Positions 14,509 through 36,070 of a stretch of DNA of 64,000 nucleotides are shown here, piece by piece. Origin of the DNA: a phage; sequence record PZ534511.1; one strand, 5' to 3'. The notes below the pieces were generated by a model. The model was given only the letters and a program-made list of their open reading frames with translations, had not been told where the DNA came from and made no database searches. Every line of letters starts with the position of its first letter. The first letter of the stretch is position 1. The position numbers and the translations under genes are program-made.

Positions 14509-17500
14509 TTAGTCGTGAGACTCGTTCCAAGGTCCCTGGAAGCTAGAGTTTGAACGACTTACTATCACAGTAGGACAGGATATTGTAACACCTGTTATAG
14601 CTGAGGTGGACCAGCGTGTGTAAATTTCAACAATAATGTCTATGGTCTGTTCACCCAGCCCTGTTATCCCGACTGCACACATACCATCGTTGTCGTTACC
14701 ATACTTCTTGCCAGCGAGCAACTGGTGCCCCGCTATCCACACATTCAACTGGGAGCCTCCTAGAGTTCCGTTAAGCTTAAAGAAGAATGTTACGTTCTTA
14801 CCTTGTCCTTGAACGTTATCCACGTATCTCCATCTCCAACGGCAAACCTGCTGCTGAGAGTTGTATACTGGAGGACAGTCACCGTAGGTCTTGTGTGCAA
14901 CTATTGCACCTTCGAACTGGTTAGCACGAATAACAGAAGCCTCTACACGCCCACGGAAGGTACCTCCGGTTGCATCTATGGTGCCCCTAAAGCTACCGTT
15001 ATTGGCATAAACATCCCCACGGAAGGTACCACTGGTGGCGTTAACTGCCCCTGTGAAGTTACCAGAACTGGCGTTGATGTTGCCTTTCACCCATACATCC
15101 ATAAATTGGGCGTGCCCGTTCTTGTTAATATACCAACCGTATTTATGGTACCCGTTGCCATCGTAGTTGTTTGACGAAATTTCTTGTGCGATCTTGGCAG
15201 AAGAGATCGTGCCATTCTCTATAAAAGCGTCTTTCAAGAACGCTTGGTTGTTCTTGATTGCGAAAGCAAGGGTTGCTGTTCCATTTCCGGGGTTGTATAC
15301 CGCAAAGTTGTTTGCACTAACCATGAAGTAGGATTGAACTTGGCCCCCAGACCCTTCCATCCCCAACTGGATACCTGCAACATATTTATTCCCTGCGGAG
15401 TCTACCTGTATTTTTGTGCCCCATTGAGCATTTACTTTACCCTCTAAGTCGGTTACAGCCTTAGATGTTGTAGCTACTGCAGCCCTAAGCTCAGATACAT
15501 CCCCAACATCATTGATGATCTCCTGCTTAGCGACAGCAAGTTCTTGACGAATAGCTGACGCTGTGCCGTTGATAAGGTCCACAGTGGCTTTGTTGGTATC
15601 GGAAATTGTAGCATCCAGCGCTGTTTTTGTGGAGGTCAGTTTTCCATCCAAAGCATCAATCGCTTGCTTGTTGGTAGAGATCTCCCCACGTGCAGAAGTT
15701 ATTTGCTCTGACAGTGCAGATGTTTTCTGATTCAACAAGTCAGTGGTGGCCTTGTTGGTATTGGCAATCAAGGTGTTGAGGTCAGTTTTTGCGGTAGTTA
15801 TCTTGCCGTCAAGGGTGGTATAGTTTTTAGATACCGTCGCGTTTGTCTGACTAATCTTTTGATCCAGAGTTTCAGATGTCCTGTTCAAAAGATCTACAGT
15901 GGCTTGGTTAGTGCTCAAGATGCTTGCGTCAAGTTCTGTTCTCTGAGTATTGATCTTACCATCCAGAGTTTTATCTCCGGCTAAATACCCGCTCTCAACT
16001 CCCCCTATCTGCTCTACCAGCTCACCTTTGGCGGCAACCAATTTCTCATCTAAAGCCTCTGTCTTTTTGTTCAGAAGATCAGTAGTTGCTTTATTGGTTG
16101 TCTCGATTAGAGATGCCAGTCTGCCACTTTCAGTGTTCAGATCGTTGGTGAATTTGTTCTGTGCAGCAACAAGTTTCCTATCCAGCGCTGTAATGTTACC
16201 ATTGACATCTTCAAACTTCTGAGTTGTTTCTGTAACTACCGCACCTATTCTGTCCCCAAGTTGCTGGAACGCTTCATCTACCCTACCATCCATGTACCTG
16301 TTAAGTTCTGTGACACGATTTTCAACCTCTTCAATAGAGGAATCCAAAGTGCTCATCAACTCTTTATAAGTTTCTGTCTTTTTGAATTCAGCATCTATCT
16401 GAGGCATCAAATCCTCAATAGAGGTGTAGCAGCGTGCAGCGCATTCTACAAACTGAGAACTACCAAAAGCGTTTGTGGTTCGAATATACCAATAATAAAC
16501 CTTATCGTTCTGCAGACCTTCAGATGTCCAAGTTGAACCAACACCCATACGGGTGGCGTTTGAAGTAACGGTTGCATCACTGGTGTCTGGCAACCTTGTC
16601 ATACCGGATGTCCAAAAGTCATACTGGGTGCTAACACTTGCTAAATCCCTACTATGCGGAATCAAGGTGATAGCAAAGTATCCTTGCTTAACCTCTACAG
16701 AAACCGGAGCTTCAGGTGCCTGAATGTTAAACTCACAATACGCTTCTGGAGATACACCACCTTTATAAGATGTTGCAACCACGGTTGCTGTGTATGACCC
16801 TTTGGTCAAACCTTCTACTCTGACAAACTGCTCAACTGTCTGTGCTGTCCAAACAATCTCTCCGTTCTTTCTTACCTGCACAATATTTTGAGCGTAAGTC
16901 CCAACGTTGTCCCAAGCCAAAACACCGTGAGTTACTTCCCCAGCTTGGAGAACGGAGTATCTGAAGTTTTGCGGTTGAGCTACACCAGATGGAGATATCG
17001 GAATATCTACATTGCCAGAATCCGGAAGTTGCCCTGTGGCATCATTCCACTCTTTAGCATCTTGACGAAGTTTTACCTTGACACCACCCTTTTTGGTAAA
17101 CTCCCATTCAAGAACCCTCATTTCTTGGCCCACTATACCTATACTTGGAAGGTTCATTGTAACGTAACGACCAGGTTTAAATTTAAAACCTCGCATATTG
17201 CAGGTGACTTCAATAATCCTGCCAGCTCTCGCGCGTCTTAAGAAGATTGCAGAAACACGCTGAGCTTGATAAGGGCTGGTAACAAAGCGATAGTCTATAT
17301 CGATTATCTTTCTTTCTCCATCCTTCTCTATCCACTCTGGGACAAACACTGATGGAAAATCTGTTTCAGAATACCCTTTGGTCGGACTAGTGAATCTGCC
17401 GGTTATTGTGTTGGATCTTTTGTCAAATGAGGCTTCCGGGTAGATCTTGACCTCACCACAGACACAATCCTCACTCAGTGTCATTGTTGCCGGGCCATAG

Positions 17501-18348
17501 TATGCACCAACCAGCAAACCATACTTACCAGCTACATAGCTGAGATCTGCGCCACAAGCTTTCAGCATTTCTGCCATAATACTTGCTGGGGCCTCATCCA
17601 TATCGAACTCGCCATTAATTGTGTAACGACGCTCGCTGGTTCCGTCTGCGTTTCTTACAGCCTCGTCGCATATGTTGGCAGCCTCCTTGAAGGACTCCCA
17701 GTTGATGGTTTCGTCAGGACATTTAAGGTACGTTCTTAAATAGTCCAGAATCACCAAGGCAGCGTTATTGGTATACACCTCTTTACTAGTGCGAGGATCA
17801 TAGCATTTTTTACCAACCTTGACGAGTGTGACGTTTGGCAACCCAAAAGGAAACTTGTTAGGGTCAAACCTAAAGCTGACCCGTAGCCAACTGATCCCTC
17901 TACCTATCATGTCCGGTGACCACGATGGGCAGTGTGTGCCCATGAAAGGATCAGAGGTTTTTCTATCGTTATGTAGCTCCCACGATACCAAATCCCCATA
18001 CGAAGAAATAGGATTACCGTCGATAAGTATATCTTCTATACCTTCCAGAGGGTGATTGGCAAGAACAATAGCACAATGAAGGGTTCTGTCCCTGTCCTGC
18101 TCCAAAAACGCAAGCAATCCAGATGTACGTGTCTTCCCATACACTACAGAGCAAGGTGCAGCAGAAGATCTGAGAAGCTTTTGTCTATCTTGCTGACTTC
18201 TGTAAGATTTGTTTCCCTCGAAAATCTTATCCAGAGTTCTGGTGGTAACAGTGTTCAGGCTGTCAGCCAGAGCTGCCTTGGATGCGTTCCAGTCATAACT
18301 TGAAGATCTTGCAGAAGCAACGATGTTATCAATCATTGCAATTGGCAT
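14509..18348 (-). CDS. central tail fiber / tip attachment protein (lambda J-like, 1279 aa)
   Basis: Recalled similarity to lambda J over several blocks (e.g. [25 protein letters not shown] ~ lambda [63 protein letters not shown] ~ lambda [36 protein letters not shown]); internal coiled-coil repeats. Confidence 0.7.
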   Translation of the reverse strand: [1279 protein letters not shown]

Positions 18349-18785
18349 TAATACCTCCAGACATCAACAACGATAGAATCTTTCATGTCGAACATAAAGA
18401 CCCCTTTATCACCTTTAGCCCAAATCTGGTTGTTCCAGAACACACCAGCGGTGAGCCCGTTCAGACCTTCGAAAATGACAATATCTCCACGCTGAGCCTG
18501 TTTAGGAGTATCCAGCCGAGTCATAAAGAGATCAAAAATAGTAGGCAGGTGTGTGGTTTTGAAACGAAGCATGCACCATCTTTTGCTTTCCAACTCTGTT
18601 TTATACGTTCCTTCAAAGTTAGAAAGAAAATCTGTTCCGTATTGGGCATCAACACACTTAGCCGCAAAGGTGCAACAATCGTGGAATCCCCATTCAAAAG
18701 GTATGGTGGCCTCTTCGTCAAACACTTTCCACAATCTTTCTTGCCAATCCACTAAACGAGGATGTGTGCTCATTAAACCTCCCAA
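18348..18785 (-). CDS. tail tip assembly protein (possible NlpC/P60-like, gpK/I-like)
   Basis: 145 aa immediately upstream of J-like gene; conserved-looking HDCCTF Cys motif. Confidence 0.3.
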   Translation of the reverse strand: MGGLMSTHPRLVDWQERLWKVFDEEATIPFEWGFHDCCTFAAKCVDAQYGTDFLSNFEGTYKTELESKRWCMLRFKTTHLPTIFDLFMTRLDTPKQAQRGDIVIFEGLNGLTAGVFWNNQIWAKGDKGVFMFDMKDSIVVDVWRY

Positions 18786-19339
18786 ATGATCGGGCGGCTC
18801 GCCACCTGATCCACATATTTAAAAAATCTGTCGTTATCGTTTCTTGAGCTGTGGCTTTCCTCCGTGTACCGATAAGGAAAACCTCTTAACCAGCTGTTGA
18901 AGATGGAGGAGATGGATATGGACAAAGCACTATTCTCGCCTGTCTGAATAGCCATATCTGTTATAAGGCCGTCAAACAAGCCATTAGTTGTAACAGGCAG
19001 ACCATTCTCCATAGCGGTAATGTACAACGTGGCACGACAACCAGAATACTCCGTCTTCAGCAGATCACCCACATACTTAGGATCAAACCCGTTCAATGTC
19101 GCTACCACAGATCCGAAGTTGGTGGCATCTTTCTCAGACACAGCAGTTAACGTTGCTGATCCACCTATCCCTATAAAATGTTGCCCCTCAATTACTACAA
19201 CACCAGTGCCTGAGCACACCCTGACAGTTCCTGTCGGTAGCTCCAGCTTTGCAGCAATTAAGATCTCAACACCATCAAGCTCCAGCTTTTCAAGAAATAA
19301 ATTATCTAATGGCGCTCTGATCATCTTAGAAATCCTCAA
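18773..19339 (-). CDS. tail tip protein (188 aa)
   Basis: ORF track; overlaps neighbours by 13-14 nt in operon with J-like gene. Confidence 0.3.
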   Translation of the reverse strand: MRISKMIRAPLDNLFLEKLELDGVEILIAAKLELPTGTVRVCSGTGVVVIEGQHFIGIGGSATLTAVSEKDATNFGSVVATLNGFDPKYVGDLLKTEYSGCRATLYITAMENGLPVTTNGLFDGLITDMAIQTGENSALSISISSIFNSWLRGFPYRYTEESHSSRNDNDRFFKYVDQVASRPIIWEV

Positions 19340-19916
19340 AGAAGTTGATAACTATATTATCACCTTTTTGCATAGCATCGACTTTTTGCTTAATTTTATA
19401 AATATCTCTGATATGAAACCTACCCTTCGGAGATTGAGTTATTATCTTCATGGTGTCCCCTGCGGCAATAGGCTTTCTAAGTCTTGGAGATATGCCTATA
19501 ACAGCAGACCCAACACCATCACTACGCACTGGAGCTGTTACCACTTTCAATTCATCATTGACAGATATTTTATCCCCAGCTCTAGCTATGTCTCTGTTTG
19601 GCTCCCATCCGACCGTCTTCAAAAAATCGTCGTTACCAGTAGGCCCAAGGGCGATTGGCTCATTAGTTGTTACTGAGTGACCGTAAGTTTTAATAAGAAA
19701 GATGTTTCCATCTTTATACACCTGATCAACAAAGCTCTTAAGCTCTAGCAACTGTGACTCGCTGATATTGGAGACCGTCAAAGTGCCTTTCCAGTTAGGT
19801 GTGGCATAGGTTACTTTTTGCGTTTTACCTGTAAATGGACTTTTAAACGTAACAATATCTGCCAGCAGCTCCAATCTAATATCTGGAAGATATCTAGGCC
19901 TTTCCCATAAAAACAT
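19326..19916 (-). CDS. minor tail protein (196 aa)
   Basis: ORF track; position analogous to lambda M/L upstream of K/I/J. Confidence 0.3.
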   Translation of the reverse strand: MFLWERPRYLPDIRLELLADIVTFKSPFTGKTQKVTYATPNWKGTLTVSNISESQLLELKSFVDQVYKDGNIFLIKTYGHSVTTNEPIALGPTGNDDFLKTVGWEPNRDIARAGDKISVNDELKVVTAPVRSDGVGSAVIGISPRLRKPIAAGDTMKIITQSPKGRFHIRDIYKIKQKVDAMQKGDNIVINFFEDF

Positions 19917-19980
19917 TGTGCCTCCGGGTTAAACAATCATGATAGCTATTTTACCAGATTTTAAGTTAATACGCAATACA

Positions 19981-20010
19981 AACAAAAAGCCCCCGCCGAA
20001 GCGAGGGCAA
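19981..20010 (-). terminator. rho-independent terminator after long tail fiber gene
   Basis: gcccccgc-cgaa-gcgagggc hairpin (19991-20010), U-run on minus RNA from 19981-19990. Confidence 0.55.
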
Positions 20011-20015
20011 AACAG

Positions 20016-23000
20016 TTACTTCAGTTTCTCTTGCAACCCAGTAACAACCTCTGTCAATTTTTTAACCTGCTCCTCAAGGGCGGTTATTTTATCATCTTGT
20101 TCTCTGCAAACCTGAACAAGCAATCCTGTTACAGCCGCATAGTCAACATTATAGAATCTTTCCTCGGTCATCAGAGGAATACCATCTTGAGTAGGACCAG
20201 GAACCTCTTTCCTTTTCACGAAAGAACCAACCGCTTCAGGCAATGCTTCCATAACCTCTTGAGCAATTACCCCCGCGTGAGGCATACCATTCTCTTTTAG
20301 AGTGTAGGTATAGCCTTTCATCTTACGGATAGCTTCCAACGCGTTAGGAATAACCTCTATGTTATCCTTCAGGTCACGGTCAGAGCTCTGGCTGACAGCG
20401 GTGCACTCTACTACGCCGTTGACAGCAAAGTACCTTGACTTGGCCTCATCTGTCTTAGCACCACAATGCCATACCCAACTGGCAGATGTAGCGTTGTCGT
20501 TTATCTGAAACTCAAGCACGTTCTTCCTGTCTGCGCCATTACCCCAGTAGTACATTCTGCCTGTATTAGAAGGCATGTTGGAAGTGTTGGTAACATCGGT
20601 CCCACCACCTGTATGTATCATGAACTCTGGGTCAAGATTGGAACCTGCGGTTTTAAGAGTAATTCCCTTACCACCAAGCTGCTGCCAAGGTCCCCATGTG
20701 AAAACACTACCTATTGTTGTTCCATAACGCAGGAATTTTTCCCCAAGATATGATATATACTCCTGTACGCAACTCTCTGGAACATTGGCGTAGTTCCTGT
20801 ACACGATAAGCGTACCTGCCCGGGAGCATGGGTAGTTTCTATCAGGTGTGGCTTGAGCATTGGCCTCCTGATGATAAAAACCTTCCCTATCCCCTTTGTA
20901 GTCGTTAAGGTCATTAATCCCCAGACCTTGCCCTCTGTGTTGTATGACCTTGTTCCACGCTCTATGGTTACCACCCTCGATAGATCTGGTGTATAACTGA
21001 TCAAGGCGTCCAGCCATTTGGAAAGCATAGTTTCCAGAGAACGCCACAGACAGTCCACCAACAACCATCGAGCCTTCTGGTCCGTTAACATTACCCGCCA
21101 TTATTTTTGACGGGTTATTAGACCCAAACTGGTTGTTCCAGTCTCCACCAGTATGACATACAAAACCACCAGGGGCCGAGAAAGTACCGTCTTTGTTGAA
21201 ATTGTAGAATCTGTGAGCTGTGCCCACAACATCGCGAACAATAACTTGACCAGCTTCTGGGGTAGATCTGAACTCTGCCTGACCTTTGAGGCCAGCACCA
21301 TTACCGCATTTAGAGGTAAACGTACCGTTAGTTAGATCCTCTGTTCCATCTGATGCACACTGGAATCCTGCATTAGAGAATAACGCCTTTCTAGGGCTGC
21401 CATAGCACAAATAGTCAATACCGTCAGCCCATAGTTCGACTTTAGGCATGTTCATTTTGCTCATCACCGCATAGCGTTCAGCAGTGCCTATATAGTGCCA
21501 CTGTGTGCCGCCGCCAGTGTAGAACCCAGAGGTACCTTTGAAGTCAACAATAGGTCTGGTGTTGGTATTGTTATCTCCAAGAACAGCAAGATTCAAATCT
21601 GCTGACTGGAGAGGCGCAACAAACTTAACACCGTCCTGATTGTCTGTTACAGCTCCGACCTGGTAATCTTGCTCTCTGGTAAACACTTCTACAACATTTC
21701 TACTTGCGTATACGCTGACAGGGAAAGCACGAGCCTCTACATAGAAAGCAACATACTCTTGTTTACCCCTTGTTGGAGCAACCATCCCAAGAAGTGCTTT
21801 TTCATTCTGGTAGAAATTTACTACCCCGTAGAAAGAGTCTCCTCTGTCTGTCCAGCCCCCAGTTCTGTAATGGCACTGCAGAGTAGCGCAGTTCATAGGG
21901 TCACTGCCGGATGACGATCTGGTAACTATGGTAATATCAGTACCAGTTGCTGGAGCATAGTACGGATCTGTTCTAACGATGATTGGGTAGTATTTCCCAT
22001 CTTCCATCCCTGCAGTTCTTGGCAGTGTTAAGAAATCTTTGACACCCGCAGCTATAGGAACTTTGAACAGATTCTGAGCATCTGCCAGGGTTGTAGCCCC
22101 AGTGCCACCTGCGGCGTGAGATAAAGGTTCCCACTTGGCCTTCCGGTTGTTATAAACACCCCATTCCAGAGTGCCGTTACCGGACTCATCCATCCCACCA
22201 TCCCAGACGACCATCTTGGCGGCTTTCTTGGACCCCCAGAAGCCTCTTTCTGCTCCTGAACTACGAATCCACTCTCCAAGTCCCCAGTTTGTCAGCTGAC
22301 CAGTAAGATCCCCAACCTGCATGTATTTAGGGCAGTCTAACACGCCGTCTTCGCGTAAACCTAAATATCTATGAGTTTCAGATCCTTTTGCACCTTTGTG
22401 CAGGTGGATTGTCAACCAAGCCTTATTGTCGTTTCTTACCTCAGAATAGATCCTATATCCATGCTCAAGGACACCGTCAGTATTATATTTATCTCCATGG
22501 AGAATACCTGAGGCCGATTTAACATCTCCCGAGTATTGAGCTAAGTAAAGGTGCCCGAAGGCTGGCGAGTTGTTTTTACCAAGGCCAATATGAGATCTGA
22601 AGGTATCATCGTTACGAGGTCTGACCATCGGCTGCCATGCAGTCCACTGATTTGTGTTGGCCTGATAGGTTCTCAAATACCAAACATCTACGTTAGAGAA
22701 TGGATAGTATTCCTGACGACAACCTGTACCGCCGTTAGCATTGTTCTGCCAAACAATCAAGTGACCAGCACCAGAACCTGCAGGGTAACCATTTGCCTCA
22801 GTTGCATTAGCAGTCATCGGCTGGTAGTATATACCATCCTGATTACCAGTCAAATTATTGATATTGAAATTTGCATCAAGCGCAGCACGCTGCTTATAGA
22901 AAGCACCGATATTGATACGGACTCCAGCGGCATCTCTAGCCCCTGTGCCGCCTTGCTCTATAGCAAGAGGTTGCCACGAAGCTGTTTGTTGGTTCCACAT

Positions 23001-23816
23001 ACCCCAACGGCCTGTTGCATCAAGCTGCAAGTACCCTGCCGTATTTAAATCATCTCCAGCACGGATAACTGTTCTTGTTGGGTTATTTGTCTCTAGGCGT
23101 TTAAATTCATCACGAAGTGCTATTCTTTTTGTTGTTGCTACACCGTTGGTTACTGCAATGGTGTACATAGCTCCGGTGGTAGCGCCACGGAAAATACCAT
23201 CAACAGTTGTAGTATCACGACGAGATACCACACCGTTCAGAAATTTTTCACCAGCTGCTACAGAAGGGTAGTTGGTAGTTCTTCCCTCTTCAATAACTGC
23301 AGGGCCAACAAAGTTATCAAGGTGAATAACATCGCCTACAGTGTGCACTGTACCAAAATCTACACGCTGTGCAAGTGCTTTAGCATCGTTAGCTGTCTGA
23401 ACAGTAACATCCATTACATCCTGGACAGACTGCCCTTCGGCTGTCATGATCATAGATGCGCCAATGGTAGATTCCAGCTCCTCCCTTAGGGACGGGTCAG
23501 TATATACCATCCATGCAGCGTCAGTAATCCCACCATCAGCGTACGGTGAAGACAGTGCAGGAACAGTGTGTGGAAATTCGCCTTTCCAACGCAGGTAGAG
23601 GTCTTCCTCTTCGAAGTAGGCAAAATCCATTGGGCCGTTTAACTTACCACCTTCCTTAAAGGAGATTACATGAGAAACAGTCCCATCCACATGGACAACA
23701 TCGCCAATTTTTACACGACGAGTCAGGTCTGGTTGTTGAACAACCAGGTAATCATCCTCTGTCACTGCGGTAGTGGCAGGAAGAGATTCAATTCTGACAA
23801 CTTTAATATCAGCCAT
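20016..23816 (-). CDS. long tail fiber with C-terminal intramolecular chaperone (peptidase S74-like) domain
   Basis: 1266 aa; C-terminus SSDRDLKDNIEVIPNALEAIRKMKGYTYTLKENGMPHAGVIAQEV...coiled coil matches autoproteolytic chaperone of endosialidase/T5 L-shaped fibre type; N-terminal domain shared with 26451..27119. Confidence 0.6.
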   Translation of the reverse strand: MADIKVVRIESLPATTAVTEDDYLVVQQPDLTRRVKIGDVVHVDGTVSHVISFKEGGKLNGPMDFAYFEEEDLYLRWKGEFPHTVPALSSPYADGGITDAAWMVYTDPSLREELESTIGASMIMTAEGQSVQDVMDVTVQTANDAKALAQRVDFGTVHTVGDVIHLDNFVGPAVIEEGRTTNYPSVAAGEKFLNGVVSRRDTTTVDGIFRGATTGAMYTIAVTNGVATTKRIALRDEFKRLETNNPTRTVIRAGDDLNTAGYLQLDATGRWGMWNQQTASWQPLAIEQGGTGARDAAGVRINIGAFYKQRAALDANFNINNLTGNQDGIYYQPMTANATEANGYPAGSGAGHLIVWQNNANGGTGCRQEYYPFSNVDVWYLRTYQANTNQWTAWQPMVRPRNDDTFRSHIGLGKNNSPAFGHLYLAQYSGDVKSASGILHGDKYNTDGVLEHGYRIYSEVRNDNKAWLTIHLHKGAKGSETHRYLGLREDGVLDCPKYMQVGDLTGQLTNWGLGEWIRSSGAERGFWGSKKAAKMVVWDGGMDESGNGTLEWGVYNNRKAKWEPLSHAAGGTGATTLADAQNLFKVPIAAGVKDFLTLPRTAGMEDGKYYPIIVRTDPYYAPATGTDITIVTRSSSGSDPMNCATLQCHYRTGGWTDRGDSFYGVVNFYQNEKALLGMVAPTRGKQEYVAFYVEARAFPVSVYASRNVVEVFTREQDYQVGAVTDNQDGVKFVAPLQSADLNLAVLGDNNTNTRPIVDFKGTSGFYTGGGTQWHYIGTAERYAVMSKMNMPKVELWADGIDYLCYGSPRKALFSNAGFQCASDGTEDLTNGTFTSKCGNGAGLKGQAEFRSTPEAGQVIVRDVVGTAHRFYNFNKDGTFSAPGGFVCHTGGDWNNQFGSNNPSKIMAGNVNGPEGSMVVGGLSVAFSGNYAFQMAGRLDQLYTRSIEGGNHRAWNKVIQHRGQGLGINDLNDYKGDREGFYHQEANAQATPDRNYPCSRAGTLIVYRNYANVPESCVQEYISYLGEKFLRYGTTIGSVFTWGPWQQLGGKGITLKTAGSNLDPEFMIHTGGGTDVTNTSNMPSNTGRMYYWGNGADRKNVLEFQINDNATSASWVWHCGAKTDEAKSRYFAVNGVVECTAVSQSSDRDLKDNIEVIPNALEAIRKMKGYTYTLKENGMPHAGVIAQEVMEALPEAVGSFVKRKEVPGPTQDGIPLMTEERFYNVDYAAVTGLLVQVCREQDDKITALEEQVKKLTEVVTGLQEKLK

Positions 23817-23851
23817 TCTTTCTCCTGAAAGGGGGCAAACAGCCCCCTATG

Positions 23852-26449: not shown

Positions 26450-26450
26450 C

Positions 26451-27128: not shown

Positions 27129-27845
27129 TTAGTTAACATCAATAGCACGACCAGACTGGTTGGCAATAGCCTCATCATTGGAGGTAGCAATAACACCAGA
27201 GTATTCGCGCTCATCTGGAGCAAGCGTCCAGGTATTGCGGTTAATGGTTTGTTCTGCCTCAGTCATCAGCAGATCTTTATCCTGAGTCAACAGAGAGCCT
27301 ACAGGGATCGGGTTTTCCATCTCAGGACCAGCATACTGGTTCCACCATGTGGCATCTCCGGTTCTAGGCAATCTGAAGTTGATCAGATAGTACAGTTTAT
27401 TAGCCCACTTAATCCAACCCTCATCATCACAGAGGGAGGTTGTCCCAGAATCAGGCTGTGGGTAGGTGAACTGATCAAGACCTACAAAAGCCAGCCTTAC
27501 AATCTCGTTCTCTTTGGTAACAACCTCAAAGAACGCTTGGTATGTTCTCGATCTTCTATCCATGGTGGATTGGAAGTTTATGATGTTTAGCACATCCGGC
27601 TCTTGTCTTGCCACTTCCATAATCTTGTTATCAAGAACAGTCTTCATGACCTTCTTGCTGAGAAAGTCCATATAAGGGAAGCCAAACAGCTCGTCAAAGT
27701 ACCAGCTCCCCTTCCACGTATTAAATCTCATCCACAAGCGCTGGCGCAGACTTACCTGGTTTGAATCTATCAACTCAAGACCTTTGTCTATCGCCAAATC
27801 GCCTGTCTGTGGGTCCATCAATATATCACTATAAAGCGTAGCCAT
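27129..27845 (-). CDS. baseplate protein (238 aa)
   Basis: ORF track; operon position between spike-like protein and fibres. Confidence 0.3.
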   Translation of the reverse strand: MATLYSDILMDPQTGDLAIDKGLELIDSNQVSLRQRLWMRFNTWKGSWYFDELFGFPYMDFLSKKVMKTVLDNKIMEVARQEPDVLNIINFQSTMDRRSRTYQAFFEVVTKENEIVRLAFVGLDQFTYPQPDSGTTSLCDDEGWIKWANKLYYLINFRLPRTGDATWWNQYAGPEMENPIPVGSLLTQDKDLLMTEAEQTINRNTWTLAPDEREYSGVIATSNDEAIANQSGRAIDVN

Positions 27846-27857: not shown

Positions 27858-28535
27858 TTAGTGCGGTCCACTTGTCTCGCCATCAGGGCAAGAGTGGGTA
27901 TGACCTTTATATTCTGCATAGAATGAATCCAAATCCACGCCAGCAGCAGTTATAATTCTACCAGATGGGTCTATTGTGGCACCATTCATTCTGATATTTC
28001 CATCCACAGCAGCTCGCAAATTGGCAGCACCGTTAGTGAAAGAAAACTCCCCGCTGCTGTCGCACCGTAATGTTCCACCCGGTGTCTGAAGCTCAAAATC
28101 GCCAGAAGGTGTCAGTTTAAAATAAACCCTATCATTCCATAACTCTACGTTATCAGGATCGATCTGTAAAGCGTTTGAGTCTGAATGAACGGAGGTGATT
28201 GCCCACCCTGGAAACAGGCCGTGAGTTTGTTGATCGTCGTTATTGTTTTCATTCCTCTCTGAAAACTGCAATCCTACAACATCTCCGGCCTTAATAGGAA
28301 GTGTTAACCTTGCCTTTCCGCTGTTTGCAGACATCACCTGAATTGGAACGTCATAGATAAGGGGGTATCTCTCCACATCTCCGTCATCAAACGTGGTTTC
28401 AGCTATTGGCTGCACAGATGCAGAAGGGATACTGTAGTCTACACTGACAACTCTGGCCCTGATACTGGTGTGGTAGTCCCTCATTATTTTTTCTATGAAG
28501 GATCTTACAGCAGCATCTTTCCTATTTATTGCCAT
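27858..28535 (-). CDS. baseplate hub/spike-like protein (225 aa)
   Basis: ORF track; position downstream of tape measure; weak recollection of gpV/gp45-like N-terminus. Confidence 0.3.
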   Translation of the reverse strand: MAINRKDAAVRSFIEKIMRDYHTSIRARVVSVDYSIPSASVQPIAETTFDDGDVERYPLIYDVPIQVMSANSGKARLTLPIKAGDVVGLQFSERNENNNDDQQTHGLFPGWAITSVHSDSNALQIDPDNVELWNDRVYFKLTPSGDFELQTPGGTLRCDSSGEFSFTNGAANLRAAVDGNIRMNGATIDPSGRIITAAGVDLDSFYAEYKGHTHSCPDGETSGPH

Positions 28536-29539
28536 TATACCTCCTCAGTTTTGTCAACAACTCCACCCACTGTTTCCCCAAGGCCAAGCTCTGTAGTGTA
28601 ATCACCTCCTTCTATGGTGCCCTTATGATGCACCGTGATCACCTTATAGAATCCTGTATATTGCTTGCTTTTAAGATAAATAGTGGACTCTGGGAGGATA
28701 GCTCCGTTAAGGCATGTGGTTACAGTAAGGCCAACATCCTCTCTCGGGTTTTTCTTTTTCTTTTTAGATGTCGAACCGCCTTTGGCAGCAGCTTTAGCTT
28801 TTCGTTTTTTAGCAGGTTCTGGGTTTTTAGGGGTAGGCGATCCGTGCATCCCAGACTCTGCACTTATTTCAAACACAGAGTCTTTGAACCTTTTTCCAAC
28901 CTTGGTCCAATACAAAGCTCCATCCTGAACGCTAAATGTGGAGTTGGTCAGCCTTGCAAACCTGCGGAGGTTCTCTGCAGTGTTTCCAGAGAAAGCCATA
29001 GAGTATTGCAAAGTCTGGTTTCCAAAACCCACAACCCTACCTTTTGGCAAGTTCATATCCTTCAGCAGGTCATTAAGCACAGAGTTCAGAGGTGTACCTT
29101 TCTGATAAGATCTTGTGCTTTGGCACTTAATAATGTTCTCAGTACCATCTCCAAAGATGAACTTAGTTTTTCTGGTCGGACCTTCCCATCTGTCTTCAAC
29201 AAACTCTACAGTTCCGGAGAATATTAACTGGTTCTCATCATCATATCCAGCTTCAAACATAACTGCAAGGGCATCAGCCTGATGCATATCCAGATAGTTA
29301 ACTGTATCGTCAGACAGGTTGTAAACTGTCACATAACCTTTGTTTGGCTCTTTGGTATTATCCTTTTGTATGTCAAACTCTATATTGGCAGCACCAGTGT
29401 CAGAGCTAACTTCATAAACTCCGGAATCACTCTCCCCTTTCTTTTCAACAGATTTTGGGATATTGGTTTTTGATTTACCGCCATGTTCTACAGGACGACC
29501 AAACAATAATCGCCATGTTCTACGTCTGTACTCCGCCAT
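28535..29539 (-). CDS. tail/baseplate protein with Lys-rich segment (334 aa)
   Basis: ORF track; KKRKAKAAAKGGSTSKKKKK low-complexity tract. Confidence 0.3.
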   Translation of the reverse strand: MAEYRRRTWRLLFGRPVEHGGKSKTNIPKSVEKKGESDSGVYEVSSDTGAANIEFDIQKDNTKEPNKGYVTVYNLSDDTVNYLDMHQADALAVMFEAGYDDENQLIFSGTVEFVEDRWEGPTRKTKFIFGDGTENIIKCQSTRSYQKGTPLNSVLNDLLKDMNLPKGRVVGFGNQTLQYSMAFSGNTAENLRRFARLTNSTFSVQDGALYWTKVGKRFKDSVFEISAESGMHGSPTPKNPEPAKKRKAKAAAKGGSTSKKKKKNPREDVGLTVTTCLNGAILPESTIYLKSKQYTGFYKVITVHHKGTIEGGDYTTELGLGETVGGVVDKTEEV

Positions 29540-29919
29540 TATTCTAACCCTTGCTGTTCCTTGTAAAGATCAACCGGGGTGCCGTATACAAGTTGTAGCT
29601 CAGATCTCGCCCCAAGGTTATATCTTCCAACCCTGCCCCAATATTGATCGTCTTTAAACGACAGCGCCATCAGTCTACCTTTCGGTAAATCATCTCGGTA
29701 ATGCAGTCCGTCTAAAATATCTTGACAAGCTGTTACTTTTCTGGTTACTAAAGGGCTGTCACCTACCGGACCAAGAGATAACCACCAGGACTCATCCCTC
29801 TCATTCCATTGCATACGCATTTCATACGTTTCGTTGTCTAAAACAACACGCATGGTTTGATCAGGAAAGCCGTCAATGTCCCACACAAAGGTGATTATGC
29901 ACCAATCTTTAAGCTCCAT
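29539..29919 (-). CDS. tail protein (126 aa)
   Basis: ORF track; ATGA start/stop overlap with neighbour. Confidence 0.3.
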   Translation of the reverse strand: MELKDWCIITFVWDIDGFPDQTMRVVLDNETYEMRMQWNERDESWWLSLGPVGDSPLVTRKVTACQDILDGLHYRDDLPKGRLMALSFKDDQYWGRVGRYNLGARSELQLVYGTPVDLYKEQQGLE

Positions 29920-29931
29920 TATACGCTCCCC

Positions 29932-30843
29932 TTATTTCCCGTTAACTTTGTTGTAGTTCCCCTGCTCAGATGGGACTATGGTAGAAGGTCTTCCATATTC
30001 CTGATAATACCAATCCGCAGCCGATTGGGTAACACCGTTTTCATCTGTCCACATCATGGATTTGTATGGCTGCCACTCCTCTGCAGCATTTGTGGATGCA
30101 GTGTCTGCGAATGCTCCTGTGTCCCTCTTGTTACCTACGTTACTACCATTCTTACAGTCGTTGACAGCACCTTTTTGTTGGGTCTTGCCTACTTTCTTAG
30201 GATTGCTGTATACAGTTGCATTAACAACCTTGTTCAAGTAGAATGTGCGGAACTCTGTAAGTTCTACATCAAAAACCATTGCAGCACCTTCACCAACAGA
30301 CTTGCTGGCAGAAAGGCTGGTTATAATGTAGTTCTCAAGGAGTCTTTCCTCGGTAACCAAAGAAACCAATTGGCGCTTATTAATGATCTCAGTCAAAGCC
30401 TCCAGTGCAGCGCCCGGTCGCATAGATGCTGCAGGGTTTTTAGAGTCAGTATTCCTGTCAATGTAGTTTTGCTCATAGATTATATGTGGTGATGTATTTA
30501 CCCTACCAGTAAAAGAAAATACACCATCTTTAATTACAGCGTGGTCTGACAGGGTAGACTTATCTTCCACTGCAAAACTAGTTTTATCAACAGAATGTTT
30601 GAAAGAATAGTTCTCAACCTGGTCGAAGATAATGGCAAGATCGTTAGTAAAGTTTTTACCCTTCATCTCCGTATTGCGACCACCATAGTTAAGACCGCTG
30701 ACAAACATAGTGTACTTTACATCGCTTTCAGTTTGCTGCTCTGCCTTTTCAGCCTTTGGAGATTTAACCTCTTGAGGCTTGTACAGGTCTTTTTCATCAA
30801 CTATATTGCTTGGCATAACCTCTCCAGGACACTCCGATACCAT
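29932..30843 (-). CDS. tail protein downstream of tape measure (303 aa)
   Basis: ORF track; first gene after tape measure in operon. Confidence 0.3.
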   Translation of the reverse strand: MVSECPGEVMPSNIVDEKDLYKPQEVKSPKAEKAEQQTESDVKYTMFVSGLNYGGRNTEMKGKNFTNDLAIIFDQVENYSFKHSVDKTSFAVEDKSTLSDHAVIKDGVFSFTGRVNTSPHIIYEQNYIDRNTDSKNPAASMRPGAALEALTEIINKRQLVSLVTEERLLENYIITSLSASKSVGEGAAMVFDVELTEFRTFYLNKVVNATVYSNPKKVGKTQQKGAVNDCKNGSNVGNKRDTGAFADTASTNAAEEWQPYKSMMWTDENGVTQSAADWYYQEYGRPSTIVPSEQGNYNKVNGK

Positions 30844-30922: not shown

Positions 30923-33259
30923 TTACCAAAGGTCGGTAGACATGAAGTTGATATCTTTATTGTTCTCCCACTCAAGTTTTGCATCAAATATTTTGTTAAA
31001 CTCACCCTCATCTATTGAAATCGTGATTTTCCCATCACTGATCTCTAAAGGTAGCATTTCCATAGTTCTTAATTGAGAAGCAAAACCAGGGCCACCCGGC
31101 AACGGAAGAGTCCCGCCCGGTAAGGTGTCCAAAGGATTAACAAACCCGTTACCTCCCGATATGATATCTTTGCGAATCATATCGCTGATAGTATCCAGCT
31201 GCTGATTTCTTTCACTTAGTGGGTTGTAACGGTCATTAAATAATTCCCCGGCGCTTAGTATTGTACCGATAATGCCCAGCTTACCGAGCAGACCAACTTT
31301 GCCACCAGGTGTCTTGAGGCCACCTCCACCTTTTCCTGCCGGAGCTCCACCACCAGATCCTTCTGTAGTAGCGGCACCCGCTGCTCCAGCTGCACCCCTT
31401 AGAGAGTTAAGGAATTTAAAGGTTTTTACAAGCATAGATGCCATGACAAAACCTTTTGTTAGGGCGTTGACGACCAGCATGATGGCAGCAGCAAACCCTG
31501 CCCATTTAGCATAGCTAAAGGTGTCATGAAGCTCTTCAGAATATTCCTTCGTCTTGGCTGTTATGAACCCCCATTTAATCCCCCATTCAAGGAAAAACAT
31601 GCGGATCTTGACTATAGTGTTGTTTAGTTCACCAACTACCCAGTTAAGGCCTCTCACAAACCCGCTAACAAAATCACCAGAGGCATCCCACACAAATTGC
31701 AGAGTCTCACCCGTGCGGATCAGTGTATAATAGAACTCTGTTAGTTCGTCAGACCAACGGGTGAACAGTTTCTGACGAGTCAGTTCGATGAAGGTTTTCA
31801 GTCTGTTTTCTGCCAGCACGTTAGACTTCTGCATTCTTTCATAACCAGCTGCAGATGCCTCGTTCATGTACTTAGCCACATACTTCATGATCTTGGCTGT
31901 TTTAACCTCACCTTTCTTCATCATGTCCATGAACTGATCCATGGAGAGTTCAGAAAGACCAAAAGCCTCTTTGGTGGCCTTGATAAAAGGTTCGTATGCA
32001 CCAGGCAATGCTTCAGCAAGTTGTTGCTTCAGTTCTTCGGACATTACTTGCCCTTTACCGAGCATTTGCTGGATTGCCATAATACCGCGCTGGTATTTTA
32101 CCTCATCGGCACCATAAGCAGCAGCATACTGGGAGTATGCAGAAAACAGCTCATGCACTTCCTGATTTGTCATCTGGTTTTTGGCGTTTACCGACATCTG
32201 GGCGTAACCTTGAAGACCAGATTTGAGATCAAAACCAAGACGCATAGCCTCTTGCTGGACAAACGCAACCTCACTGTTAGCTTTGTTTGGATCTCCAGTA
32301 ACAGCAGTAAGAGCAGCACTTGCCCCCTCCATCATGTGACCGGATCTATTAACTGCAGCAAATCCAGAAAAAGCTGTATACGCAGCTGTTGCATTAATAA
32401 CAGATCTACGTAAGTCTCTCATGGCATCGCCTAGTGTAAGCGTTTGGCTGGTGGCGCTTTTAAACCCAGACTGCAGCGCTGACAGGTGGGCGTTAAAGGT
32501 TGACTTCTTCATCTCCCCGCGAGCAAACCTGGACTCTAACTCTGAGTATCCTGGCAAGCTTCCACGGAATCCGGCCCCATACTTGGCAGAAAGTCTTATC
32601 GCGGAGTTGTAGAGGTGGGTTCTCCTTGCCTCACGATCCGACATAAGCCTATTATCCATACCAGCTTTACTGTCTCTTCTTAGCTGTCTATGATAACGAT
32701 TCATGGCAGCGGTCTGGGCTTTCACAAGATTAGGATCTGAAGCCACTCCACCCATGTTCGGGTTGCCTGGAATATATCTGAAAGACTTGGCGTTAGCAAG
32801 AACTCTTGCCTTAGGTGCCTTATAACCCCCATAGGATACTGGTGCAGATTTGGCAGCTTTTTTAGCCTCTTTAGCTTGCTGCTGGTAGAACTTACGCATC
32901 CTAGCCATCTCTGGGTTTTTGGCGGTAAGATTGCCTACAGCTTGCCTACGTCTTGCATTCTCCCTACGCTCTATTGCAGCCTTTACTGCAGCCTCTTTCT
33001 TAGCCTGAGCAACGCTCTCCCTGTGCAGTTTAGCATTTGCTTGAGATTGTTGTCTGGCAACACGTTGCATTGTCTGCTGAGTTTTAACCGCCACTGCCTG
33101 CCATCTACTCATGGGGTTGGCTGAGTTAAAATCCTCGCCCAGTTTCCTGAACTCCCTCCCAATACTGCGAATTTTCTCTACAGCTTTTTTGTAGGAGGAG
33201 TTCTCTATCTCAAAGCCAATCTTGTTGACTGTTGTGGCAACTATTTTGTTTGTAGCCAT
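30923..33259 (-). CDS. tail tape measure protein (778 aa)
   Basis: Long, largely alpha-helical composition with Gly-rich tract GAAGAAGAATTEGSGGGAPAGKGGGGLKTPGG; located after tail chaperone genes. Confidence 0.6.
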   Translation of the reverse strand: MATNKIVATTVNKIGFEIENSSYKKAVEKIRSIGREFRKLGEDFNSANPMSRWQAVAVKTQQTMQRVARQQSQANAKLHRESVAQAKKEAAVKAAIERRENARRRQAVGNLTAKNPEMARMRKFYQQQAKEAKKAAKSAPVSYGGYKAPKARVLANAKSFRYIPGNPNMGGVASDPNLVKAQTAAMNRYHRQLRRDSKAGMDNRLMSDREARRTHLYNSAIRLSAKYGAGFRGSLPGYSELESRFARGEMKKSTFNAHLSALQSGFKSATSQTLTLGDAMRDLRRSVINATAAYTAFSGFAAVNRSGHMMEGASAALTAVTGDPNKANSEVAFVQQEAMRLGFDLKSGLQGYAQMSVNAKNQMTNQEVHELFSAYSQYAAAYGADEVKYQRGIMAIQQMLGKGQVMSEELKQQLAEALPGAYEPFIKATKEAFGLSELSMDQFMDMMKKGEVKTAKIMKYVAKYMNEASAAGYERMQKSNVLAENRLKTFIELTRQKLFTRWSDELTEFYYTLIRTGETLQFVWDASGDFVSGFVRGLNWVVGELNNTIVKIRMFFLEWGIKWGFITAKTKEYSEELHDTFSYAKWAGFAAAIMLVVNALTKGFVMASMLVKTFKFLNSLRGAAGAAGAATTEGSGGGAPAGKGGGGLKTPGGKVGLLGKLGIIGTILSAGELFNDRYNPLSERNQQLDTISDMIRKDIISGGNGFVNPLDTLPGGTLPLPGGPGFASQLRTMEMLPLEISDGKITISIDEGEFNKIFDAKLEWENNKDINFMSTDLW

Positions 33260-33313: not shown

Positions 33314-33562
33314 TTATCCTCTCCTGCGCTTAGCTTTCGCAGCAGCTGCGGCAGCCTTCTGCTCCCGCTCCATTTCCCTGTTTTGGACGGTATCTAGGAA
33401 TTCTTCGATATCAAGATACTCACATAGCTTCAGGAAATACGCCATATCTGCAAGATTTAGCGATTCAAAATTTTCCCCTTTGAAATTCTTGAGCACCCTG
33501 CACCAAAGAAAGTCGAACCAGTTTAGTGAACTGTTCTTGGCTGCCCACTCACTGGCCCTCAC
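33314..33562 (-). CDS. tail assembly chaperone, downstream frame (82 aa as listed)
   Basis: GTG-initiated ORF whose frame stays open upstream into the 3' end of 33574..34047 in the -1 frame. Confidence 0.3.
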   Translation of the reverse strand: MRASEWAAKNSSLNWFDFLWCRVLKNFKGENFESLNLADMAYFLKLCEYLDIEEFLDTVQNREMEREQKAAAAAAKAKRRRG

Positions 33563-33573
33563 AACAACCTTGC

Positions 33574-34047
33574 TTATTCCTGCTCTTCCGGAGTCTGATC
33601 CAGATTGTTCACCTGCTGAATCATACCCATCTGCTGTAACATCTCCAGAAGGCTTCCTAAACCGTCTTGTGTGAAAAAACAGCCGTAGTTAACCTCCAGA
33701 ACCTTACCTGCCAGCTTAATCATCTCCAGCAGATGCCCTGCAAACACAACATCCGGGTTAAGCCTATCCACACCATCTACGGTAATATCTTCGAACAAGA
33801 TTTTAAATAGCTCTTCAATGGAGTTATCATCAAGTTCTTGGAACAGGTAAGCCAGGGCTGTAGGAAGGACCTCTGCCATATTCTGACCACCTGAGAGAAT
33901 AGATCCACCGATAGCACCTAGCGGGACAGCCACAATCTTACCGATTTTAGGCATGTTTTTCATTGCTTTCATCGGCCCCCAGTGGGTGATCACAAAGTTG
34001 TGCCCTGCTAAATCAATCTCTGTTGTAGGTCTAAAGTTTATAGCCAT
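33574..34047 (-). CDS. tail assembly chaperone (157 aa)
   Basis: Acidic C-terminus; position between tube-like gene and tape measure (G/E-like). Confidence 0.35.
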   Translation of the reverse strand: MAINFRPTTEIDLAGHNFVITHWGPMKAMKNMPKIGKIVAVPLGAIGGSILSGGQNMAEVLPTALAYLFQELDDNSIEELFKILFEDITVDGVDRLNPDVVFAGHLLEMIKLAGKVLEVNYGCFFTQDGLGSLLEMLQQMGMIQQVNNLDQTPEEQE

Positions 34048-34209: not shown

Positions 34210-34683
34210 TTAAATAATACCTGCAAGACCTGCGAGGCCAGTAAGAGCACCAGTGATGTTATCACGGTTGAGCCATGCATCCAGAATACCGATATCCCAG
34301 TCCAGTTGACCTACTTCGGTTCCGTAAGTCAGGTCAGGCTGTTTCTGGATCCAACCGATTGTGGAAATACCAGGGCCCTGGCTACCTTCCAGCAGAACCG
34401 GGAAGAATACCAGGCCAGTAATAGATGCCTGTTTCTGCCAGTCAGAAAGGTAAGCGTTCCATACAGAAGTGTTCTGCAAAGATACAGTCATAACACCGGA
34501 TTGGTTACGGGACAGAGCCGCAGACATTTCACCATCCACACCGACGTGAGGATAAATGTTGTCTTCGTTTCTTGAAACAACAATCTTGGTGTCAGCAGCG
34601 AAGCCAGTGACACGCTGCTGCATCAGATACAGTTTGACCTTTTTAGGGTCATACGCATAAGGAGTTAAAATTTGAGTTTCCAT
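34210..34683 (-). CDS. tail tube protein (putative)
   Basis: 157 aa immediately downstream of sheath-like gene. Confidence 0.4.
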   Translation of the reverse strand: METQILTPYAYDPKKVKLYLMQQRVTGFAADTKIVVSRNEDNIYPHVGVDGEMSAALSRNQSGVMTVSLQNTSVWNAYLSDWQKQASITGLVFFPVLLEGSQGPGISTIGWIQKQPDLTYGTEVGQLDWDIGILDAWLNRDNITGALTGLAGLAGII

Positions 34684-34693: not shown

Positions 34694-36070
34694 TTATTCA
34701 GTCATTGCAACAGCATTGGTGGATTTAGAACCAACTTTGTCCAGAAGGACGTTGATCCGGATACGGACGAAGTGCAGGGCGTTGTTATACACCAGTTCTA
34801 CTTTCACACCTTCCAGAACACGAGCAGCCAACTGATTGGTTGGGATTTCTGCACGTTTAGGAACTGTGATGATCGGGTCGTAGAATACATTATTGTCTTC
34901 GTCGAAACCTGTCAGGATCGCACCATTCTTAATGCCAGTGTTGATTGGGTTGTTCATCAGGACAGACTTGATAACCGGAAGATCATCATCAGACATCTTC
35001 ATGCTTAAACCCATGTTGGAGCGACGATGCATGTACCCAAACATAGATTCTTCAGATCTGAACTTGATCCAGTGTGCAAAACGAATAGCGTCTGCATACT
35101 GACCTGAAGCACACTTACCTTCCCAGAAAGCGCCAACACCGTTAATCATTCTGTAGAAGTTAACGTGGTTTTCCCAAATAGCCATACGCTGAGTTAAAGT
35201 CAGAGACGGTGCAATCACACCTGGCATCTGTTTTAAGTGCAAGCTGTCGCCGTAAGACGGATCGTTGGATGCCATAGCACCTATGATACCACCCTCCGGG
35301 AAGTCCTTATCTGCACGAGGATCGTACATGCCAACACTGTCATATTGTGCAGCCATCAGTTTGGTGGCGATGTTATTATCTTTGCCAGTCACATCTTCTG
35401 CAGTAGAGTAGACATGCAGCTTGTAGTTAGCCTGAGCCCACTTCGCACATGCTTCAATGTCGGTGTGGTCTTCATGGCACAGGAAGTACCAATTGTCACG
35501 CTCAGCATTGATCTTATCAACTACTGTAGAAGGTTTTTCAGCATTGGCGATATTTTTGATTGTATAGTTACCAGTATGATAACCAACAGTACAGTCACCC
35601 GTGATGGTGAGAACACCGTCTTCAGCCGCTACAGTGATATCGTCCAAGTTATCATCTGCTTCGATTTTAGTCTTCATGGACTCTGCAATCTGAGTTGCAC
35701 CTGTTCCACCAGAGATAGGCACTATCAGAGAAGTATTGTAGCCACCTTTTGCAATAGTCATTACGACATCGGTATCAGCTGCGGCAGCAATACCTTTAAA
35801 ATCTACAGTGGTTTTTTCTTTTGCCTGTCTGCCGATCATAACATACTGCGGAGGGAATACACCGCCGAAAGCTTTTGCTGCAAACTCATAAGCTGCAGAG
35901 CCTTGTGCGAAACCGTCTTCCACCATCTGATCCAGCTCAGCATATACACGAGCTCGCTCAGTAAAGTTGTTGTGGATAGCGATGAACAGCGGAGTTTCGA
36001 AACCTACAGTGTCAATAGGCTGGGTTCCGAGGTTAACTGTAACATCTACCACTTTATCTAAATATGGCAT
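34694..36070 (-). CDS. major tail protein, probably contractile sheath (458 aa)
   Basis: Size, operon position before tube and chaperones; C-terminal part (GAFWEGKCASG ... VELVYNNALHFVRIRINV) resembles sheath C-terminal domain from memory. Confidence 0.45.
   Translation of the reverse strand: MPYLDKVVDVTVNLGTQPIDTVGFETPLFIAIHNNFTERARVYAELDQMVEDGFAQGSAAYEFAAKAFGGVFPPQYVMIGRQAKEKTTVDFKGIAAAADTDVVMTIAKGGYNTSLIVPISGGTGATQIAESMKTKIEADDNLDDITVAAEDGVLTITGDCTVGYHTGNYTIKNIANAEKPSTVVDKINAERDNWYFLCHEDHTDIEACAKWAQANYKLHVYSTAEDVTGKDNNIATKLMAAQYDSVGMYDPRADKDFPEGGIIGAMASNDPSYGDSLHLKQMPGVIAPSLTLTQRMAIWENHVNFYRMINGVGAFWEGKCASGQYADAIRFAHWIKFRSEESMFGYMHRRSNMGLSMKMSDDDLPVIKSVLMNNPINTGIKNGAILTGFDEDNNVFYDPIITVPKRAEIPTNQLAARVLEGVKVELVYNNALHFVRIRINVLLDKVGSKSTNAVAMTE

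Follow-up and report, generated by a model that had tools for sequence, protein, structure and literature searches.

Why a phage with a contractile tail should carry the tail-tip genes of a siphophage is the question raised by positions 14509-36070 of PZ534511.1, a 64,000-nucleotide stretch of phage DNA referred to here as the window. An earlier note, made from the sequence alone, had seen in this region a mosaic of lambda J-type tip genes and sheath- and tube-like genes, and had read the phage either as a myovirus with a siphovirus-like central fibre or as one in which a protein of 458 amino acids (aa) is a non-contractile major tail protein. Pfam, PHROG and solved-structure matches confirmed the mosaic. 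A four-gene operon located between the fibre and wedge genes encodes a complete siphophage-type tail-tip set: a distal tail protein (Dit), a gpL-like protein, a DUF6950 K-like protein and a J-like protein. We consider it probable that this cassette is an exapted, off-axis accessory adhesin complex on the baseplate of a myophage.

The region shows 94-97% nucleotide (nt) identity along its full length with more than 100 Vequintavirus (rV5-like) Escherichia phages (96% over 21.5 kb). These genomes include rV5 (NC_011041) and the BASEL phage JohannBauhin, their annotations map one to one onto the window, and the region is therefore of a known phage type. Gene by gene, rV5 shows 98-100% amino acid identity to the window with order and site unchanged, and genes are named here after their rV5 homologues. 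All long open reading frames (ORFs) between approximately 9 and 42 kb are on the minus strand, and the three ORFs on which the earlier note was built are real: 14509-18348 (1279 aa), 34694-36070 (458 aa) and 34210-34683 (157 aa). The window belongs to an rV5-like (Vequintavirus) myophage of E. coli and is one more member of a heavily sampled genus.

The tail-tip cassette

The four genes of the cassette are the following, in the order in which they are transcribed:

19326..19916, minus strand: siphophage-type distal tail protein Dit, 196 aa (gp40 homologue); PHROG "distal tail protein", E 7e-50, and fold
18773..19324, minus strand: gpL-like hub protein, 183 aa (gp39 homologue); PHROG "tail protein", E 9e-68, and fold
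18348..18773, minus strand: DUF6950 protein, K-like, 141 aa (gp38 homologue); Pfam DUF6950, E 5e-34
14509..18348, minus strand: J-like hub-plus-fibre protein, 1279 aa (gp37 homologue); Pfam and PHROG matches, and matches to solved lambda J, PY54 J and T5 pb3

The AlphaFold2 (AF2) model of gp40 has a pLDDT of 88, and its top Foldseek matches are the pb9 Dit proteins of T5 and DT57C (E 1e-8, template modelling [TM] score 0.6), followed by the Dits of Chi, R4C and JBD30. As modelled, gp40 is a two-domain Dit of the T5 pb9 type. The AF2 model of gp39 is of medium confidence (pLDDT 72) and matches the N-terminus of T5 pb3 (7zqp_b, E 3e-6), lambda gpL, on which it superposes (8iyk_L, TM score 0.57), the T1 tip (9l9p_J), the hub of a gene transfer agent (6tba), JBD30, Chi and VgrG; in this model gp39 carries the hub-domain fold. 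The third protein, gp38, shares the G..DC motif with the NlpC/P60 half of lambda K, with the histidine unaligned, and its Seuratvirus homologue shows a weak NLPC_P60 match (E 0.033) under the cut-off. At 141 aa, gp38 is too short to hold the MPN half of gpK.

Neither gp39 nor gp40 received a Pfam or NCBIfam assignment, even at permissive E-values, and by sequence none of gp38, gp39 and gp40 matched any solved chain, including those of phiTE and phi92. When the gp39 and gp40 families were compared by hhalign with the lambda L, M and I profiles, the probabilities were below 1% (0.1% for gp39 against gpL). A homologue search with the single gp39 sequence found only three proteins, and it was therefore repeated with an alignment as the query. 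In the gp39 family alignment (41 sequences) no cysteine is invariant or near-invariant, while lambda gpL has a conserved cysteine set for an iron-sulphur cluster. The cassette differs from the lambda tip in this missing cysteine set, in the missing MPN half and in the absence of a gpI counterpart among its genes; furthermore, lambda gpM is of the small type and the cassette Dit is instead of the two-domain type. The small genes had been described as K/I/L-like. The L and K assignments hold by fold and position, with no profile similarity to lambda L, M or I, and the I-like label was wrong because the first small gene encodes a Dit.

The large protein, gp37, which the earlier note had likened to lambda J, shows a hub at residues ~47-480, two immunoglobulin/fibronectin type III (Ig/FN3) domains at 490-652, a coiled coil at ~655-955, a Phage_Tail_Tip domain at 957-1097, and beta-helix repeats and a C-terminal domain up to residue 1279. 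The likeness is borne out by the Pfam domains Phage_Tail_Tip (E 1.2e-38), Ig_J_second (E 1.2e-30) and Ig_J (E 2.5e-5; at 24.8 bits this last match is under the family's 29-bit cut-off), by the PHROG family "central tail fiber J" (E 6e-165, covering residues 143-1135), and by the solved lambda J, whose residues 666-838 and 845-991 align with gp37 residues 497-671 and 958-1116. The protein is not a lambda J equivalog, as it scores 154 bits against NCBIfam lambda_TipJ, which has a cut-off of 1950 bits. Residues 47-673 are 40% identical to J of siphophage PY54, residues 245-472 match residues 528-752 of the T5 baseplate hub pb3 (E 6e-5), and the N-terminal part of gp37 is predicted to be hub-like. 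Since gp39 matches the N-terminal hub domain of pb3 and gp37 matches pb3 residues 528-752, the two proteins together would correspond to one T5 pb3. The hub of T5 is a single pb3, whereas here it is split into two genes, as in lambda; T5 also has separate pb4 and pb5, whereas here the fibre is fused to the hub, in a myophage context.

The coiled coil of gp37 is much longer than that of siphophage J (1279 versus 847-987 aa for the proteins), and it is here that gp37 varies in length (alleles of 1279 and 1199 aa). Residues ~650-950 (window 15500-16400, minus strand) contain sequence repeats of ~55 aa (TNKATTDLLN...), and Tandem Repeats Finder found no DNA-level tandem repeat across the coiled-coil region. 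Separately, residues 871-1078 of gp37 (window 14509-15740, minus strand) match the central fibre of the F2 pyocin. A switch of the coiled coil to a beta-prism fold has been reported for the related F7 pyocin fibre (PMC12874032). In the gp37 coiled coil, only a few scattered matches to SxSxxMxxLxS, the fold-switch motif of F pyocins, were seen.

Origin and distribution of the cassette

The cassette is colinear with PY54 ORF17, ORF18, ORF20 and ORF22, with 36, 29, 45 and 40% identity, respectively, and in PY54 these four genes come after the tape measure gene. Seuratvirus and Nonagvirus phages likewise encode the same four proteins in the same order as gp40-gp37. The nearest relatives of the N-terminal 500 residues of gp37 outside Vequintavirus are Seuratvirus-/Nonagvirus-type siphophages (54-57% identity). 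In the Seuratvirus KurtStettler the order is tape measure, a 194-aa protein, a second 194-aa protein, a 144-aa protein and J, the last of which is 53% identical to gp37 residues 48-721; the small cassette proteins show 29-46% identity to their siphophage counterparts (Queuovirinae, PY54). Among the IMG/VR loci, 77 of 80 are non-Vequintavirus. Where the Dit gene was resolved in them, it lies 7-100 nt (352 nt in one locus) 3' of a large ORF, mostly of 770-1140 aa, and no sheath, tube or wedge homologue was found in the stored flanks (up to 10 kb) of the 77 loci. Judged by colinearity and identity, the cassette shares ancestry with the post-tape-measure tip module of Seuratvirus-/PY54-type siphophages.

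The position of the module is different. In Seuratvirus, Nonagvirus and PY54 it stands directly after the tape measure and forms the tail tip. In a non-contractile tail the J gene directly follows those for the tape measure, the Dit and the hub accessories, and the gp37 gene is placed otherwise: the order Dit, L-like, K-like, J is kept, yet the cassette lies ~11 kb from the sole tape measure, between fibre and wedge genes, in a myophage.

Two segments also set the Vequintavirus proteins apart. Siphophage J (approximately 70 of the 77 loci were readable in frame) starts with a 45-57-residue, Ala/Gly-rich, transmembrane-like segment with a Kyte-Doolittle 19-mer maximum of 1.6-2.2, whereas in both alleles of Vequintavirus gp37 the N-terminus is shorter and polar, with a maximum of 0.31-0.39. 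The siphophage gpL-like proteins end in a near-invariant GSKKDAPxFxYK, and Vequintavirus gp39 stops just short of it. With these segments the myophage proteins may have given up contacts or functions that involve the tube lumen, the tape measure or membrane insertion.

All Vequintavirus records examined have the cassette; at 95% identity or more, the J N-terminus matches 117 records and the wedge matches 117 as well. The rV5 genes gp37-40 and more than 100 Vequintavirus orthologues (e.g., Bas53 bas53_0027-0030) show no material difference from the cassette of the window. On the other hand, the syntenic 29-kb loci in PVP-SE1 and in a Klebsiella relative have no gp37-40; they retain homologues of gp33, gp35, gp36, gp44, gp45 and gp46 with 45-71% identity. 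Among the entries read in the table of W70 virion proteins, no PHROG family of the cassette is present.

Selection, block exchange and transcription

In comparison with rV5 and JohannBauhin, gp37-40 show ratios of nonsynonymous to synonymous substitution rates (dN/dS) of 0-0.055 at dS 0.06-0.2, indistinguishable from those of the hub, spike and wedge genes, which indicates strong purifying selection on the cassette. Between the two cassette alleles gp38 has 56% amino acid identity, against 84-87% for its neighbours, with a dN/dS of 0.15-0.2. A diverged lineage (genomes L008 and L010, with 80-93% amino acid identity in all genes) has the cassette at the same site and a J of 1199 aa.

One further genome, L009 (GCA_034689965.1, contig ABPQDZ010000011.1), was compared with window positions 15350-20830. 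Its flanks are of the window type (94-96% nt identity), and the other allele extends in it from the C-terminal end of gp41 across gp40, gp39, gp38 and approximately the first 1000 residues of gp37, the remainder of which is 100% window-type. By this allele pattern L009 is a natural recombinant with its downstream joint in gp37 near residue 1000. The Dit, gpL-like and DUF6950 proteins and the J hub and coiled coil would therefore travel together, and the distal tip of gp37 can apparently be exchanged separately from the cassette. The modular exchange that the earlier note had seen implied is thus directly shown by three observations: neither PVP-SE1 nor the Klebsiella phage has the cassette at the corresponding locus, its nearest kin are siphophage tip genes, and one genome is recombinant for the block.

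The cassette is bracketed by two intergenic units:

19940..20008, minus strand: hairpin terminator after gp41 (20008-19989), then an extended -10 promoter-like site, AAAATCTGGTAAAATA, before the cassette
14437..14502, minus strand: hairpin terminator after gp37 (14502-14481), then a TTGACT-17-TAAAAT promoter-like site before the wedge gene

These units are near-duplicates, each formed by a hairpin terminator, an extended -10 promoter-like site and a Shine-Dalgarno sequence, and the exact 16-mer AAAATNTGGTAAAATA occurs only at these two sites in the 64-kb window. Cassette-free relatives show a single such unit, ahead of the wedge gene. The cassette is thus predicted to have its own terminator/promoter/Shine-Dalgarno unit, duplicated from the wedge type.

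Contractile tail and baseplate core

The remaining tail genes of the region and the wedge genes beyond the cassette are listed below:

34694..36070, minus strand: contractile tail sheath, 458 aa (gp53 homologue); Pfam DUF3383, PHROG tail sheath (E 3e-118), solved phiTE and phi92 sheaths
34210..34683, minus strand: tail tube protein, 157 aa (gp52 homologue); Pfam KPP10_Orf10, phiTE tube (E 3e-66), phi92 gp131 (E 1e-30)
33574..34047, minus strand: tail assembly chaperone (G/E-like); Pfam Phage_TAC_15 (E 1.6e-23)
33314..33679, minus strand: -1 frameshift extension of the chaperone (GT/E'-like); slippery heptamer T_TTT_TTC at ~33679-33673
30923..33259, minus strand: tape measure protein, the sole one in the region; Pfam TMP_3 and annotation of relatives
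29932..30843, minus strand: myophage baseplate tube initiator; Pfam Dit_like, BASEL "tail tube initiator", equivalent of phi92 gp135
29539..29919, minus strand: baseplate plug; Pfam Pam3_gp18
28535..29539, minus strand: baseplate hub (gp46 homologue); annotation of relatives, 57-60% identity to the PVP-SE1 and Klebsiella phage hubs
27858..28535, minus strand: central membrane-piercing spike of the gp138 type; Pfam PF18352 (Gp138-type N-terminal), phiTE baseplate chain (E 3e-62), phi92 gp138 (E 2e-18)
27129..27845, minus strand: sheath initiator; Pfam Sheath_initiator, found on the L008 orthologue
20016..27119, minus strand: three fibre/spike genes (gp43, gp42 and gp41 homologues); gp41 with Tail_spike_N and Peptidase_S74 domains
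12215..14403, minus strand: baseplate wedge genes (gp36 and gp35 homologues), flanking the cassette; PHROG baseplate wedge and baseplate protein, 58-63% identity to the PVP-SE1/Klebsiella phage orthologues

By this predicted gene content the contractile tail is complete and conventional, with sheath, tube, frameshifting chaperones, tape measure, tube initiator, plug, hub, spike and wedges. The sheath and tube genes are adjacent, and the profile searches (DUF3383, KPP10_Orf10, PHROG) and the phiTE and phi92 structures agree with the sheath and tube functions that the earlier note had proposed for them; the sheath matches the solved phiTE sheath over residues 3-454 (E 2e-143) and phi92 gp130 (E 3e-48). 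The rV5 sheath gp53 was detected in virions by mass spectrometry (MS), and by electron microscopy (EM) the rV5 tail is contractile, with a contracted sheath of 44 x 20 nm (PMC3606486). In addition, gp053, the sheath protein of the rV5-like phage FV3, is reported to make polysheaths (PMC6357053). A siphovirus with the 458-aa protein as a non-contractile major tail protein, the other alternative raised by the earlier note, is refuted by the solved-sheath matches together with the complete phi92-like contractile tail, in which sheath initiator, wedges and spike are all present; we leave it next to no probability. The myovirus alternative stands, as the sheath, tube and spike match solved myophage structures, the hub is annotated as such, and rV5 is contractile.

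The gpE/E'-type chaperones and tape measure expected downstream were also found. After the slippery heptamer the -1 frame remains open for approximately 120 further codons, to 33314, and the rV5 record shows overlapping gp50 and gp51 at this site; the pair at 33314-34047 is predicted to be a programmed frameshift of the G/GT or E/E' type. The central baseplate set is the same as that described for phi92, and no Dit-, gpL- or J-like component is named in that description (PMC13450770). The solved phages phi92 and phiTE, which are Vequintavirinae-related, have homologous sheath, tube and spike (E 2e-18 to 2e-143) and share with rV5-like phages the multi-fibre "Swiss army knife" layout.

Some further features of the region were observed. 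Residues 1086-1239 of gp41 (window 20016-20560, minus strand; the S74 chaperone region) show 47% identity to the "lateral tail fiber chaperone" of KurtStettler, a second link of the fibre cluster to Queuovirinae siphophages. The gp34 homologue (window 10143-12215, minus strand) has NCTSP_N and TIM-barrel_NCTSP domains, found on its orthologues, and its homologue in Bas53 is annotated as a lateral fibre with a glycan-deacetylase domain; such a fibre of Vequintavirinae has been tied to recognition of the enterobacterial common antigen (BASEL, PMC8594841). Approximately 18-22 unannotated GenBank records named "Campylobacter phage" (e.g., MG065653, MG065682 and MG065661) show protein identity of at least 98% to window positions 9000-36000, and these are probably records with a mis-attributed host or contaminating coliphages. 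Finally, the sign of the GC skew flips at window positions ~53000-54500, which suggests a switch in transcription direction or a module boundary.

A probable accessory adhesin and the alternative readings

In the proposed arrangement, trimers of gp37 and gp39 would form a closed hub cone, capped by a gp40 ring in the fashion of a siphophage tip. This complex would no longer lie on the DNA path, a view favoured by the polar gp37 N-terminus and by the lack of the C-terminal decapeptide in gp39, and it would have been exapted as an accessory, off-axis receptor-binding organelle. A long fibre would project from it, in which the two Ig domains are followed by a coiled coil of ~45 nm, then by the J tip domain and finally by a C-terminal receptor-binding domain, and the complex would add one adhesin to a multi-fibre baseplate; gp38 would probably be an assembly factor or a minor component. 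The ~300-residue coiled coil accounts for the ~45 nm, and the hub, the two Ig domains and the tip domains bring the estimate to ~60-70 nm. This is compatible with the thin 70-nm fibres of rV5, five to six of which were seen by EM (PMC3606486); gp41 could explain those fibres too. A more specific proposal, which we put forward tentatively and with slightly more doubt than confidence, is that the myophage domesticated the whole machine of a siphophage tail tip, with its Dit ring, split hub and central fibre. It would now serve as an accessory adhesin complete in itself, a "tail tip without a tail", which is mounted on the contractile baseplate off the DNA path, has shed its lumen- or membrane-facing segments and has kept the cone.

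Several points weigh against an accessory adhesin. No baseplate docking domain was identified in the cassette proteins, it is hard to see what a hexameric Dit ring would bind away from the axis, and the complex could be present once, on the axis, or six times, at the periphery. Placement of the complex in the virion is inferred, and the loss of the hydrophobic N-terminus and of the gp39 tail is correlative only. The virion data are thin as well: by MS of rV5 virions (PMC3606486), gp37 was represented by 4 peptides and 5 spectra, with one clean tryptic peptide, and gp38-40 are not among the 19 proteins listed. In low-resolution cryo-EM of two Vequintavirus phages, three fibre types were placed and the J-like one was not (PMC12143355). 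The rV5 MS, in which the sheath gave 15 spectra, gp41 9 and the tube 4, is too shallow to settle stoichiometry, and a run of this depth, with 19 proteins listed, would overlook small proteins of low copy number. No further Vequintavirus virion proteome and no paper on a second Dit/tip complex in a myophage were found among the papers searched, and according to the BASEL authors the assignment of genes to the individual fibres is unclear (PMC8594841).

The lack of gp38-40 in the rV5 virion proteome would also be expected if gp37 alone were structural and gp40, gp39 and gp38 were assembly chaperones or adaptors, absent from or sub-stoichiometric in the particle, with no Dit-hub cone. Lambda gpK is likewise an assembly factor and not a major virion protein, and gp38 evolves far faster than its neighbours, as described above. 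We nevertheless regard this reading as rather unlikely: the proteome is shallow enough for small low-copy proteins to escape it, gp40 and gp39 retain full-length Dit and hub folds at a dN/dS of at most 0.05, and both co-transfer with the hub half of gp37. A true central fibre, for which each virion would have a single gp40-gp39-gp37 complex on its tail axis, either beneath the spike or surrounding it, appears unlikely to a greater degree. It would be in keeping with the homologues outside Vequintavirus, all of which are axial tip complexes, with a hub and Dit set built for a six-fold or three-fold axis, and with the 5 spectra of gp37 against 9 for the similar-sized gp41, which fits a low copy number. 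However, the axis already has a tube initiator, a plug, a hub and a sharp gp138-type spike, the homologues of which in phi92 and phiTE were resolved with nothing underneath; PVP-SE1 and the Klebsiella phage, whose hub and spike are 57-61% identical, have no cassette and are viable phages; the lumen- or membrane-type N-terminal segment and the gp39 tail are lost; and EM of rV5 shows its several thin fibres rather than a single central one. The siphovirus-like central fibre of the earlier note is thus left unsupported, with the axis already equipped, the cassette-free relatives viable and the features of the axial version lost.

Finally, the cassette might act outside the virion, with free tip complexes poisoning the tail assembly or blocking the receptor of co-infecting Seuratvirus-/Nonagvirus-type siphophages, or serving as a decoy. 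Its closest kin are indeed E. coli siphophages of the same habitats (54-57% identity), the virion evidence is weak, and the cassette was not placed in the cryo-EM maps. We consider this very improbable, as the cassette is embedded in the late structural block with a promoter of the same type as that of the wedge gene, a tryptic gp37 peptide was obtained from purified virions, the long fibre and C-terminal domain are maintained and are exchanged like receptor-binding proteins, and no precedent was found in the papers searched. An accessory, off-axis adhesin remains the reading that we prefer.

Implications for rV5-like phages

The mosaic as the earlier note stated it was already known, since the genes, the J and Dit names and the PY54 similarity stand in public records. 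RefSeq names the cassette genes distal tail protein, tail protein, hypothetical protein and central tail fiber J, and the 2008 GenBank notes on rV5 cite the similarity to PY54. The BASEL label for gp37 is "lateral tail fiber with fibronectin type III domain", so that public annotations disagree on whether this fibre is central or lateral. Four points were not found stated in the papers searched, namely the completeness of the tip set, its absence from PVP-SE1 and the Klebsiella phage, its co-inheritance as a block, and the loss of two siphophage segments, and they constitute a modest addition to the known mosaic.

E. coli phages of the rV5 type rank among those isolated most often, and they have a place in cocktails for biocontrol and therapy. 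If the J-like gene is part of a complete, co-inherited Dit-hub-fibre module of siphophage origin, the "central" and "lateral" annotations could be reconciled. Host-range engineering would then gain a defined four-gene unit with a natural recombination joint near fibre residue 1000, and the cassette would be a concrete test case for the re-use of a tail-tip complex outside the tail axis. Should the "tail tip without a tail" prove true, it would represent a new way to build and dock a receptor-binding organelle.

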